Assembly (NCBI GenBank): GCA_951406725.2
Contig: OX597838.1
Location: forward strand, 5,580,001 to 5,644,000
Reading direction: 5' to 3'
DNA: 64,000 nt
DNA from: Octopus vulgaris
Lineage: Eukaryota
Part shown: piece by piece, positions 8,421 to 48,142 of the stretch
How the letters are laid out: every line of letters starts with the position of its first letter
Position numbering within the stretch: position 1 is the stretch's first letter
Program-made: the position numbers and the translations under genes
Notes under the pieces: model-generated
Seen by the model: the letters and a program-made list of their open reading frames with translations, nothing else
Databases searched by the model: none
Told to the model about the DNA's origin: nothing

Positions 8421-8424
8421 TTAC
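8421..8424 (-). CDS. Possible terminal exon start (CG|G TAA stop), 3' UTR continuing toward ~8100
   Basis: Acceptor cccatcaatttcAG followed by GTAA; would end the protein at ...FCCR*. Not unique: the gene may continue with other exons. Confidence 0.3.
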
Positions 8425-8739
8425 CTGAAATTGATGGGTACGCGTATAGTTCTAACTTCCACGCATTTTCTGATGTTATTTAGGGAATACGGGACAATAA
8501 CATAGTGGAGTGGAGTGATAAACTCTTTGCTTCTTACGAACTTGTTTTCAATAAATCGAGCAGAAATGATTACTGAATCATTGTATATTTTTTTTATGGA
8601 GGAATTCCAGCATTTTGTCAACGGTTGCCAAATATCACCCGCAACAATATATCTACATCAACAAAAGCACCAGCAGCAGTAGAAGCAGCAGCAAAAACAA
8701 AAAAATTACACACACACACAACTGCATTACCAGTAAACG

Positions 8740-8950
8740 AGATGATAATACGAGGTGGTATCAAAAGCACACAACTACCAACATGGCTGAAAAAGATGGG
8801 TGAAAGCGAGAAGGTAGAACACCTAGAAAAATCAGCATTGCCCCGGGAACGGTAAGAATTCTTCGCAGGGTTCTTGGCAGCATGACCAGTAAACAAGTGT
8901 CACCTTGAACAGCCGACACTTTACACCAAACCCAGCAAGATAAACAGTGA
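8740..8950 (+). mobile_element. RLE-type (R4/Dong-like) non-LTR 3' fragment
   Basis: GGIKSTQLPTWLKKMG...VEHLEKSAL/GTVRILRRVLG matches the RLE C-terminus (LQK.ALLGTARILR.VL); followed by (AAT)n. Confidence 0.65.
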
Positions 8951-9049
8951 GTTTTCATATAATAATAATGATACTAATAATAATAATTAATAATAATAAT
9001 AATAATAATAATAATAATAATAATAATCATTACAATCATCATCATTATT

Positions 9050-9190
9050 ATTGTAGGTGCTATAGGTATGATAAAAATGGATGTCAGAGACATCTAGAGA
9101 AGATCCCAGGAGAACCATGTCTCAGAGAAATCCAAAATATTGTGCTGTCAAGTACTGTCGACATTCCTAGATAAACCCTATCAATTTAAC
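9050..9190 (+). mobile_element. RLE-type (R4/Dong-like) non-LTR 3' fragment, second family
   Basis: VGAIGMIK/GCQRHLEKIPGEPCLREIQNIVLSSTVDIPR; begins right after the (AAT)n/(CAT)n run. Confidence 0.7.
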
Positions 9191-9940
9191 TGTATGTGTT
9201 GCATGACATGTAGATAGTTTGCTACTTCCCCTGCCATTTACTTGATTTTAGACCCTGACATAAGCTAACCTTCTTTGCCAATTCCATAGCTGTGACGGGT
9301 GATGGTCTGGAAACTGGGACCTTTTCGTCCTTGTGTTGCATGGGCAAACATTATGAAATGCATGGCTCTACTCCAGGGAAAGTGAGTAGATTAGTGATTA
9401 GATTTTTCGGCTCACCGCTACTGCTGTTTCACACTCTCCTTGTTCCTTTCTTTTATTCTTATCTGAATTTCTCCAACCTCTTATACTGTATTCCAGTCAT
9501 TTATGCTAATTGCCATTTCCTGGCCTATTAATCGTTCGGCGGAAGCTTATAAAACTCTCTTTTCATCGCATATTCTCATCATTCATTTCATGAAGTCTCT
9601 TTTAATTGAAACATTTCTCAGCCAATGTTATAATCACAATCTTATTTACTTCATTTTCCCATTTCACTTTCATCCTTCTGTACTTTTGATTTCGATTGCG
9701 CACCTCATCAAAGATTTGATAACGACCTGCCGGATCTTGGTGAAACACTCCTTGCTTGCCATGCGCTACACCTTCATTGTTAACAGTTCCGGTCCCGTTA
9801 ACGCAGTTATGATTCTTACTTGAATGTAACATCACTCATTCTGAAGTAGTATCCACAAGGTTGTGCAATCACCAGTAGTTTTTTATCATGACATCAGCAC
9901 TGAGTTACCAATCAAGGCTCAAAGAATCTACAGCTACACT

Positions 9941-11250
9941 ATATAAACTGTCCAAAATAAGTTTAAGACCGATGATGACAATTCTATTCCTTAATCAATA
10001 TATTTTTAACAAAACTGTATAAAATTATTTTACCTTTTACAGTTTATGTAGAATTGTTTTCTTTTTTCGAATTTTCGAAGACTTTATACATCTTTCTACA
10101 ATTCCAATAATTCTAATGCGCAATTAATTCAGAGGATTAGATACTGTCGGCAAAATACGTTTAAGATCGTACAAAGATTAGGCAAATTAACAAACCTACG
10201 GGGTGGTCATATGGCTGGATGTACTGCACTGTTTTGCTTAATAATCGAACATTGTTACACATTAATTTGCTCCGGGAAATTGTCGTTGTATAAGTCCAGT
10301 TACTAGATCAAAGACCGTGTTGCTTCATCAGAAAAGTGACTCCATCATAAAACTTAGCAAGCGATTAGGATGCAGCAAATCGGTTTGTATTCAAGCATGG
10401 ACACTTTACCATGCCACTGGCCAATACAAAGATTTGCAAAGAACGGGAGCTCCCAGAAAAAAAAACAGTACAGATGGATCGGCGAATTTATGGGCTCTCT
10501 GAAGTTAACAGAATTCCAACAGCAGTAGACATTTGCAAGCAATTATCTGATGAAACTTACATCAACTTTGCACCACAAGCTGTCTGAAAGTGCCTAAAGA
10601 AAGTTGGACTGCTCAGCCGGATCGCTCGAAAGAACCCAATAATTTCTGAGACGAAGGCAGATCAATTTTGCTAAAACCCATATAGAATGGACGGCTGAAA
10701 ACTGGTCAAAAGTTCTTTGGATCGACGAAACCCGCTTCTGCATATCTGGATCAGACTGAAAGACTTATGTTAGACGCCGGAGAACTGAAAATTCTATCCT
10801 AAGTGTGTCAAGAAAACGGTGCAAGTGGAAGGGACGGGTAATGGTGTGGGCCTTGTACAGCAGCATATATATTAGGTCCATTTGTTAAGGTTGATAACAG
10901 ACTGAACTGTGTAGGCTATCTGCGATTAATAAATGAAACTATGCAGCCTTATCTAAATAAACAGATGTCATCGGGATCTATTTTCCATTAGGAAAATTGC
11001 CCCGTTCATTAGGCTAGGAAAGTTTTGCAATATTTTGAGCGCAATACTATGGCGGTTATTGAGTGTCTCACGTAGAGCCCGGATATTAATGCGATAGAAA
11101 ATTTATGGAACTATGTCCATGAAAGAGTTCATAAGAAAAAGAAAAAAAAACCAACAAATTTGCTCCTAATATATAATTTTATTGCCATCGTCCACAACAA
11201 GCTCGCTTGGTGGTTTGACCGATTTTGTCGCCGACAGACCGATCATTAGT
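9941..11250 (+). mobile_element. Degraded Tc1 (DD34E) transposon; transposase pseudogene ~10290-11160
   Basis: RTGAPRK, WTAENWSKVLWIDETRF, VMVW, GPFVKVDNRLN, IFH*ENCPVH and SPDINAIENLW, with stops and frameshifts; related motifs at 9941 and 10141 look like outer/inner direct repeats of a left TIR. Confidence 0.88.
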
Positions 11251-11260
11251 ATACAATTTT

Positions 11261-45500: not shown

Positions 45501-45589
45501 TCTCTCTCCCCGTTTTTTGTTTTTCCTTCTTGAATCAGCCAGTCGTCATCATTTCCCGCTATCACCCAAAGCTGTTTCTTTTTTATACT

Positions 45590-45715
45590 CTCTACTTACT
45601 CATGTCCTTTCTGTTGAAGAGTGTAGGTTCGAAACGTAAAATACTTTCTCACCTTTCACGTGTTTGTTATATATACGCCTGTCTCCGTCTTTTGTTTTTC
45701 TGTAAATTTCTGTAT
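45590..45715 (+). mobile_element. Penelope-like terminal repeat with a degenerate minimal hammerhead, ending in (TA)n; related 3' piece at 54535-54590
   Basis: TTT-CTGTTGA-A-GAG tgtagg TTC-GAAACGTA-AAA; shared CCTGTCT..GTC.TTTGTTT.TCTGTAAATTTC. Confidence 0.55.
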
Positions 45716-46162
45716 ATATATGTATATATATATGTATATATATACATACATACATACATACATACATACATATATATATATGTATATATATATATATATA
45801 TATATATATATATATATATATATATATATGTATGCACATCCTAGACAAGGGTGGAACATATTTATTAGCTTTGGAGTAGTTAACTCGACGCCAACCTGTT
45901 ATATTATATATATCGCTTATCTATTGTTTCACTTAGTAGATCCCAGTAGTTCCTTTGACTGATTAAGTCTCGTTATTTGTATCTATTTCGTTTGTCTGAC
46001 CATTAAGTTCCAATGGTGTTTATTATACGACACTTGCCCCAAATATTACATACTTGGGAATCAAATCACCCATTAATATACATTCATACAATATACTTAT
46101 ATATATATATATATATATATATATATATATATATATATATATATATATACATACATATATAT

Positions 46163-46470
46163 GAACAATTGCAACGGGGAATGTATTTATAAGCCGTTTA
46201 ACAAACACAAAAAAAAAACATTAGATTCACTTCAACATTTGACATGTCAAAATATGTTCGTGCCTTTGAGACCGCGACCCGTTCACTGACAAAAGTCCGT
46301 GCTGCATCAGGGAACAGGTCGCGTTCTCAGAGTGACGAAAATATTTTGACAAATTAAATGTTGAAGTGAATCTAACGGTTTTTGTGTGTTTCTTAAATGG
46401 CTTATAAACACCTTCCACGCTGCAATTGTTTTCGTTCCTGCACACGATCTCAGATAAGATCACTTGCTAT
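46163..46470 (+). mobile_element. Fold-back element next to (TA)n with two hammerhead-like motifs
   Basis: Imperfect ~125-bp arms centred near 46298; tail matches the reverse complement of ~22195-22240. Confidence 0.75.
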
Positions 46471-46610
46471 ATCTAAATAATGAACTGATATTCTCGTATT
46501 TCAGGATAGTAATTTACATTTTTTTTTGTTTTTTTGCCAAATACAAACTTTCACTGTATATCGGTTCTTAACCTATTTATTATTATTTTATTTCATTGCA
46601 TGTCAATTAC

Positions 46611-46659
46611 CTTGAAATCTTTCATCACATATCTGTGATCTCTTCAGAGATTTTTCCAT
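46611..46659 (-). CDS. Putative first coding exon of a CG-1/CAMTA-like gene (MEKSLKRSQICDERFQ; whole exon 46611-46707)
   Basis: Acceptor tttacctgtgacctcatcAG before 46707; ATG at 46659 (cggATGg) with an upstream in-frame ATG-GAA-TAA; donor AAG|gtaatt; ends in phase 1, compatible with the 33695-33740 exon. Confidence 0.55.
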
Positions 46660-48142
46660 CCGACTTCCTGATTATTCCATGCAGAGACACGTAGGATGTA
46701 TGAGTCGCTGATGAGGTCACAGGTAAATGGCGAAAGATTTCCAGACAATAGTCATAAGATGAAATATTAACAATGATAAACGAGTTACGAACGAATATAT
46801 AGCTTGTGACTTTATTTGGAAATAATATAACAATCATTCCGAAAAGTGACGATATCTGTTTCAACACACGATTAGACCTCTTACAAAACAAATTCACCAA
46901 AATAGCAAACTGACTTTCCTATGCAGAAAATCTTTCTAATATCGAAAGACCACAAAGTACAATTCGATGGCAAACAAAATGACGATACATTGCAGTAACA
47001 ACTGAAATGATAAATCCACTCATTATAGAGACATCTGCATCTGTGGATCTTAAAACTCATTACCAAGAACGGAACAGCTTTAATAACAAGCGTCTGGAAA
47101 TATAAACACTATTGTTACATATAAAAACAATTGGCATGGCTGATGGAAATGTATTTCAAGTTCTTTGCCTCTGTTCAATCCTTTTCGCCTTGATGTTAGC
47201 TATATTTATACCATCCCGACTAAACTTGGGTACAAATGATATCGAATGACAATTAAACATGGTTTGTATACGTAAAAAAACAAAAACGTTGTGCGATGTT
47301 GGTATGAAATGAATAAAAGAAGCAAATGAATTCAGGGGGTGGATTTGACATGACTTTGGTTTAGCAAAATGCCACGAGGCAATCTGGAATTAATGAAGTT
47401 TAATAAAACCCATTAATATTAAGTAGATAGGAAACAAAAGAGAAAATTGAACCAAACACAGACTTCTTGATACTTCGTATTTAATTAACTAGACAGAGGA
47501 GAAATAAAATGTTATAAAGGAATATTTGATTCGGGTAAGATAAATAATTAAAAGAAAGCCTAATGCCGAAAATAATGTAATATATATCAATAATCTGGTG
47601 GCTGTTCTATTAAAAGCTATATTTATGATATTCTCAGCTGGCAGTCAATTAACAAGACTAGACATGTAATAAAGTGTTCATTTGAAAGAGACCAGCCGCA
47701 CACGGCATTGATTATATTTACTAAGAATACTGCGTGGTAGAAAAATATCTTATAATATTTAGCGGAGAATTATGCAAATCTATTATAACGAATCAATGGA
47801 GAATACTTTAAATAGCTACAAATGAATGAAGCAAAGAAAACAGATTCCTGTCAAGGTACTGAGGAAATGTGAAACAGAAACCTTCTTCGTCACAAGCTAT
47901 TGTGAAGGGGAAGGAAAAATCTTTGAGGGAAATCCTTTGAAGAAAATATAAAATAAAGTGAAATTGATGTTAAAGACTGCCTTAAGACATTGGAGAGGAA
48001 TATCTTGTTCTTTTCTTTTTTTGCCAATGGCGAATGATATACGAGAAGGAAGAAAATAAAGCGAAAAATGGCTGAACCGCACACAAACGCGTGCGCAAGC
48101 ACATACACTCACGCAAACATATATCTATCGCTTTGTATATAT

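Follow-up and report, generated by a model that had tools for sequence, protein, structure and literature searches.

The question raised by positions 5,580,001-5,644,000 of contig C25 in the Octopus vulgaris genome (G000, 2.8 Gb), a stretch of 64,000 nucleotides referred to here as the window, is whether eight short segments of its minus strand are the exons of a gene for a small protein with a CG-1 domain, the DNA-binding domain known from CAMTA proteins. An earlier look at the letters alone (the sequence-only reading) had joined them into a divergent, possibly stand-alone CAMTA paralog. The answer tentatively preferred here, at somewhat less than an even chance, is an unannotated, weakly spliced gene for a degenerate CG-1-fold protein of the non-CAMTA kind. 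The frame can be joined, a faint profile match is concentrated in exons 2-6 and no recognisable CAMTA, BTB or MULE exons lie nearby; the existence of the gene is unproven. The window as a whole is rich in microsatellites, has no long clean open frame and gave no match in an Rfam search.

Each of the eight segments ends at GT, segments 2-8 begin after AG and segment 1 starts with ATG; both acceptors proposed for exon 3 (33178 and 33199) are likewise preceded by AG. The interlocking phases that had been described are present (1, 2, 2, 1, 2, 2, 0, 2), the joined frame is free of stops, and its translation is the peptide originally given, 154 or 161 residues long with a further, split codon for Arg. 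The segments are as follows.

46611..46659, minus strand: candidate exon 1, beginning with ATG, 49 nucleotides, donor GTAATT.
33695..33740, minus strand: candidate exon 2, predicted first helix of the CG-1-like domain, picked by the spliced-profile searches.
33101..33178, minus strand: candidate exon 3, short form, with P-x-x-G and the aromatic strand; the best homology anchor.
30536..30555, minus strand: candidate microexon 4 of 20 nucleotides, bridging phase 2 to phase 1 and the source of R-Y before D-G-x-x-W.
20490..20550, minus strand: candidate exon 5, with D-G-x-x-W and the predicted recognition strand.
17909..18001, minus strand: candidate exon 6, largely taken up by an insertion of 20 residues not found in the family, with a predicted strand behind it.
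11962..12049, minus strand: candidate exon 7, with the conserved F present and the family H-Y absent.
11688..11720, minus strand: candidate exon 8, reading through a donor-like site to TGA (11690-11688); it may be the last exon.

The donors are typical, falling between the 33rd and 81st percentiles of 58 real exons in the same genome. Exon 1 could instead be internal, given a weak AG at 46667, and the acceptor of exon 2 is purine-rich with a background-level score. Nine bases upstream of exon 2, an in-frame ATG followed by TAA (33750-33745, minus strand) resembles the start of exon 1, and may be either a lost start codon or chance.

The peptide had been called CG-1-like, and a faint signal of this kind does stand, nearer to non-CAMTA CG-1 domains than to those of CAMTA. 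With the short form of exon 3 it reaches 14.9 bits on a broad profile of 158 non-CAMTA CG-1 domains, the candidate excluded, and 16.6 bits (E 2.6e-7, for one model) on a combined profile that adds 18 CAMTA domains; none of 2000 shuffles reached either score, and the long form of exon 3 (from 33199) scores lower on the family profile. The Pfam CG-1 model (PF03859) has a cut-off of 23.5 bits. Exons 2, 3, 5 and 6 contribute 9-14 bits of match emissions each. The best-conserved columns of the family are P (120/129), G (121/133), D (171/176), W (170/176) and F (168/175), and these near-invariant residues are all present in the alignment of the candidate, F only if the 20-residue insertion is allowed. 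A gapless stretch with 11 of 31 residues identical to a repeat of P0128 spans the junction of exons 2 and 3, and the best pairwise score of the candidate against the non-CAMTA family is 66, compared with 63 for the best of 300 null chains.

That the phases interlock is not in itself beyond chance: from each of six strands, 3000 random eight-exon chains without stops and with equally strong donors could be drawn. None of the 15,000 chains from the five other strands reached the profile score of the candidate (best 10.2), nor did any of the 3000 from its own strand (best 11.8). Among 210 null chains as CAMTA-like as the candidate, the best score on the non-CAMTA profile was 7.2, and scored end to end the chain gives 11.5 versus -26.8 +/- 6.1 in 281 null chains. 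The spliced-profile searches used splice matrices of generic frequencies, and the acceptor tests and per-exon scoring used matrices trained on this genome. An end-to-end spliced search limited to strong donors arrived at exons 2, 3 and 5 with the proposed donors and frames, different acceptors being chosen for exons 2 and 5; it scored 30.5 (11.1-27.3 on six null strands; a score as high came from 1 of 28 shuffled profiles). Blind chains fall short of the profile score of the candidate, but against optimised null chains it stands no higher than the upper end of their range.

An exon-by-exon Pfam CG-1 search of the genome found two loci, on contigs C26 and C3, neither of them at the candidate. 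The C3 locus (151.24 Mb) is a single-exon CG-1 of the non-CAMTA kind, and a search with its profile gave 398 relatives, of which the best 150 were examined. Pfam CG-1 was found at E <=0.001 in 28 of the 36 long relatives scanned, whose partners include BTB, THAP, MULE, SWIM, C2H2, Ulp1 and tandem repeats; examples are CG-1-BTB (P0126 and the C3 gene of this genome), THAP-CG-1-BTB (P0129), tandem CG-1 (P0127, P0128, P0154) and CG-1-MULE transposases (P0151, P0165, P0232, P0267). CG-1 without calmodulin modules is common and ordinary, this genome included. The C3 gene belongs to a cluster at 151238499-151382035 (L002, L029-L035, L104); the CG-1 of this CG-1-BTB gene lies in one exon and is 83% identical to P0126, and the cluster also has a second CG-1 exon at 151315306, not listed by the Pfam search but scoring 101.8 bits on the broad profile, and four further BTB exons. 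Non-CAMTA CG-1 genes are seen there more clearly than at the candidate locus. On the minus strand of the same contig, 148965037-149173159 (L036-L040) carries 11 or more related BTB-domain genes in tandem.

The stand-alone character of the protein was sought in 7496 open frames over 184 kb (80 kb downstream, the window and 40 kb upstream) with CAMTA-tail, BTB and MULE profiles. TIG, ankyrin and IQ exons gave 0 matches there compared with 13 in the C26 CAMTA control, although very diverged or farther exons would escape; BTB gave only a chance-level row (E 0.41), with the BTB control recovered 2/2, and MULE only a chance-level row on the plus strand (E 0.87), from a profile that had no positive control. 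The proposed stand-alone CG-1 is in keeping with this result, and is much less surprising than had been claimed because non-CAMTA CG-1 domains often occur without calmodulin modules. The plus-strand MULE row falls in 15721-15963, the top exon-like stretch of that strand and possibly a transposon fragment. As for the end of the chain, the terminal exon placed at 8421 is unnecessary because exon 8 itself, read through its donor, gives the same final Arg and then TGA at 11690-11688, with AATAAA at 11663. Two features mark this end, the second beside a short interspersed element (SINE).

8421..8424, minus strand: start of the terminal exon of the sequence-only reading, a G then TAA, with a weak acceptor.
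11658..11663, minus strand: AATAAA, 25 nucleotides past the read-through stop; a possible polyadenylation signal or merely the A-rich flank of the SINE at 11645.

That the chain encodes a CAMTA paralog, as first proposed, is not supported by sequence tests. Instead of a strong match to CAMTA-type CG-1, a profile of 18 animal CAMTA sequences gives 2.6 bits with the short exon 3 and 5.2 with the long, scores equalled by 52/2000 and 12/2000 shuffles, respectively; the C-terminal H-Y is lost and no intron is held in common. The spacing, described as the same, is 21 or 28/22/7/16/30 between anchors in the candidate versus 24/15/7/14/40 in the closest CAMTA protein. The single full-length CAMTA of the genome lies on C26, where 11/13 of the matches to oyster CAMTA fall, and its CG-1 introns are at NE-EI, VR-P, LE-CI and LQ-NP (the hyphen marking the intron). 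A Pfam scan of single candidate exons returned 0 families. In AtCAMTA3, W26, W75, H88, YY102/103 and Y132 are needed for CGCG-box binding, and W118 more weakly, according to PMC10417383. Competition with CAMTA, also suggested at the outset, is unlikely, the predicted recognition strand carrying acidic residues and most of the AtCAMTA3 binding sites being absent. By what we take to be the correspondence of sites to motifs, only the W of D-G-x-x-W is clearly kept among the six mutated conserved sites. The opposite truncation, a rice CAMTA-like protein without CG-1, is described in PMC11084498. The second CG-1 exon of the C26 CAMTA is present twice, at 31489166-31489237 and 31495741-31495812; the two copies, separated by 6.6 kb, translate identically and have nearly identical flanks, which points to either a recent tandem duplication or an assembly duplicate.

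What such a protein might do can be approached through P0178, a non-CAMTA CG-1 relative whose model has a predicted local distance difference test score of 85.7. The model matches SSR4 (Z 9.0, root-mean-square deviation 4.2, 119 aligned), NAC 7xlj (Z 8.0, 3.3, 103), WOPR 4qtj (Z 7.9, 2.9, 99) and GCM 1odh (Z 7.0, 3.2, 92), and also WRKY domains; Foldseek ranked NAC and WRKY first, with a best E of 0.002. A solved CG-1 structure was sought by sequence and none was found (two unrelated weak rows). The placing of CG-1 in the WRKY-GCM1 group, attributed to Babu et al. 2006, was not borne out, a term search of PMC1702500 giving 0 mentions of CG1 or CAMTA.

If the exons are spliced, the product would be a small basic protein (predicted isoelectric point 9.1) of about 155 residues, with a heavily eroded CG-1 domain of the non-CAMTA type and probably no further domain. 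By analogy with P0178, its predicted fold would comprise one helix and then a five-stranded sheet of the NAC/WRKY/GCM kind, and alignment to the P0178 model would put the extra 20 residues in the hairpin that follows the D-G-x-x-W strand. A strand of this sort reads the DNA major groove in WRKY-type folds, and the candidate may contact DNA or chromatin through it, free of calcium/calmodulin control. Because three of the first seven residues of this strand are acidic and the C-terminal H-Y is lost, binding would be weak or directed to a site other than the CGCG box of CAMTA, so that the protein would be no true competitor of CAMTA. If splicing occurs, the likely role is therefore to bind DNA weakly or in an altered manner, outside calcium control. 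It is doubtful that the locus is a real cephalopod gene in which a transposon-like non-CAMTA CG-1 was domesticated as a stand-alone protein of 155 residues, with seven introns of its own over 35 kb and with strand and hairpin remodelled to a new, calcium-free specificity. A transposon-like origin is suggested solely by the MULE-linked relatives and would need the gain of seven private introns, the oddest element of this account and one that itself invites doubt.

A number of results weigh against a gene. In the comparison with the family, E becomes approximately 0.006 if scaled arithmetically to 24,736 Pfam models, the HHalign probability is 57% over 52 columns, and a held-out octopus CG-1 paralog scores 101.8 bits on the same broad profile; a three-sequence C3 profile gives the candidate -0.7 bits, with 320/2000 shuffles as high. 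The C-terminal H-Y is absent from the family alignment of the candidate, in columns where the family has Y in 166/170 and H in 130/170; the alternative alignment of the sequence-only reading keeps H and not Y, in a region 10 residues shorter. Seven introns would interrupt 155 codons when each of the two non-CAMTA CG-1 domains seen in the genome lies in one exon, and none of the seven junctions, as called, coincides with an intron position of the C26 CAMTA. Each of the seven acceptors scores lower than the weakest among 22 from CAMTA and BTB genes (two gene families, and so not independent) and lower than the median of 58 myosin/kinesin acceptors, exon 2 ranking at the 2nd percentile and exon 3 at the 5th; the myosin/kinesin boundaries were set at the best AG close to each match, and some of them are wrong. 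By codon statistics the chain stands between intron and exon: under one model order it has 0.001 bits per nucleotide, compared with -0.039 +/- 0.023 in null stretches (16/500 as high) and 0.016-0.066 in real genes, and under a second order it is indistinct, 25% of nulls being as high. Five of the eight candidate exons lie at or under the 2nd percentile of 49 real exons. The codon objection is softened because the closest real exon, the CpG-rich CG-1 exon on C3, also scores low. Training a codon model on exons of BTB and CAMTA genes gave no discrimination. With splice scores included, the best spliced match of the window (10.1) was equalled by 2/6 null strands and 2/28 shuffled profiles, the CAMTA control reaching 62.3 in this search; in a local strong-donor search the match of the window was barely top (10.7 versus 10.2 and 10.1) and used exon 3 alone. 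A 14.0-bit match further upstream in the splice-scored search was rejected as a three-exon junk chain.

It is quite possible, if well short of probable, that there is no gene at all, and that pseudo-exons with strong donors were picked from 38 kb of non-coding DNA and retained for their open frame and their resemblance to CAMTA motifs. In its favour, stop-free, in-phase chains of eight exons are easily drawn, the optimal spliced match lies inside or at the top edge of the null range, the acceptors are weak and the codon signal is ambiguous. The unmasked observed-to-expected CpG ratio is 0.93 in the window versus 0.33 in CAMTA introns; the window is therefore unlike a methylated gene body, and its ratio suggests an unmethylated region. 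One of the 3000 random chains from the strand of the candidate, moreover, scores 27.9 bits on the CAMTA profile, using exons 1, 3 and 4 of the candidate out of frame, and it too weighs against a gene at this locus.

53259-53203, 46639-46611, 41421-41382, 33160-33101, 30555-30536, minus strand: the random chain with 27.9 bits on the CAMTA profile.

This chain was not accepted as a CAMTA-like gene and is taken as chance, because it lacks D-G-x-x-W and has only 1.3 bits on the broad profile; mimicry of a family by chance chains therefore occurs. However, the best profile of the candidate is made of proteins that the sequence-only reading had not invoked, and CAMTA-like null chains, the 27.9-bit chain among them, do not transfer to the non-CAMTA profile. 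Three of the five exons of the optimal spliced chain, moreover, are those originally named, in the same frames. A weakly spliced non-CAMTA gene is rated slightly more probable than a chain of pseudo-exons.

Less probable by far is that the segments are the decaying remains of a once-real CG-1-like gene, now a pseudogene or a non-coding transcript, in which homology is left in exons 2-5 and the acceptors and the C-terminal strand have drifted. The concentration of signal in the N-terminal half is as expected of such remains, as are the position of the weakest acceptors at exons 2 and 3 and the ATG-TAA before exon 2, where relatives often start. A young SINE adds to this.

32683..33097, minus strand: young SINE copy, short of five bases at its head, with its insertion point at +4 of the exon-3 donor.

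The joined frame is nevertheless intact over 464 nucleotides and all donors are good, the one disturbed by the SINE included: it now reads GTAAGG, still a consensus donor, and was probably GTAATT before the insertion. A donor created by the head of the SINE was rejected because the flank suggests GTAATT beforehand; 1 of 20 SINE copies seen starts like this one.

That the exons are real but make up only the first part of a longer protein (divergent CAMTA-like, CG-1-BTB or CG-1-zinc-finger) with later exons farther off or too diverged is very improbable: exon 8 does end in a good phase-2 donor (score 9.3), most of the 36 long relatives bear further domains or repeats and introns above 60 kb occur in this genome, but nothing above chance was matched in the 184 kb that gave 13 and 2 strong hits in the controls, no long clean open frame lies downstream, and read-through of exon 8 gives a stop and AATAAA.

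Further searches and sequencing runs touch parts of the chain. Second copies of exons 3, 6 or 7 were sought in the genome and none were found (a row on C4, E 8.8, is unrelated); no protein of 77-2000 residues shared three 5-mers with the exon-6 frame, in what is a weak type of search, the exon-7 frame had no relative among metagenome contigs, and the Atlas match for exon 3 was only 0.75. For 11650-12100 no RNA record was listed. Contigs of four runs over 8100-12400 gave approximately 700 joints, of which the 15 listed are all inside the SINE at 11257-11653, which swamped the tables, so that they say nothing on splicing. Run X1, taken as RNA by guess only, has two contigs that cross 8365-8541 and 11654-11803 without splicing and could derive from DNA or pre-mRNA. 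Run X2, likewise RNA by guess, has a depth of 1.44 in the bin 11988-12131 (the 5' part of exon 7) and zero in the adjoining bins, and carries no weight as evidence here. Over 11634-12400 the remaining two runs differ by 1-3% (40 of 203 differences listed), which is too little to gauge conservation. At 11707, inside exon 8, run X5 (organism C) has A for G, which would change Ala to Val. A full-text literature search, whose scope leaves out most subscription papers, returned no paper on a cephalopod CG-1 or CAMTA-like gene. Elsewhere in the window, on the plus strand, open frames at 1335-1796 and 49936-50310 resemble C-terminal fragments of a retroelement reverse transcriptase.

If the gene is real, a small, intron-rich, calmodulin-free CG-1-fold protein joins the set of cephalopod transcription factors, and provides an example of a gene class that escapes annotation by homology and open reading frames. 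If it is not, the locus is a clean case of in-frame pseudo-exon chains mimicking a family, in which a random chain of the same strand matched CAMTA far better.

In comparing the candidate with CAMTA, E-E-I, P-x-x-G and R-Y-x-x-D-G-x-x-W appear in the same order in both, with a pairwise local score of 46-47 that 5-9 of 1000 shuffles equal, whereas CAMTA has TIG, ankyrin and IQ exons after CG-1 and none were found for the candidate in the 184 kb. The WRKY-GCM1/NAC/WOPR/SSR4 fold is that of the P0178 model, to which the candidate is tied by weak alignment only. In further comparing it to non-CAMTA CG-1 proteins, true members score 56-144 bits in the sample (102 when held out), and the candidate differs from them in its 20-residue insertion, in its absent H-Y, in having no partner domain found and in spreading over 6-7 small exons a domain that they carry in one. 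What it shares with them is the helix, P-x-x-G, the aromatic strand, D-G-x-x-W and F, all in the same order, and freedom from calmodulin modules.

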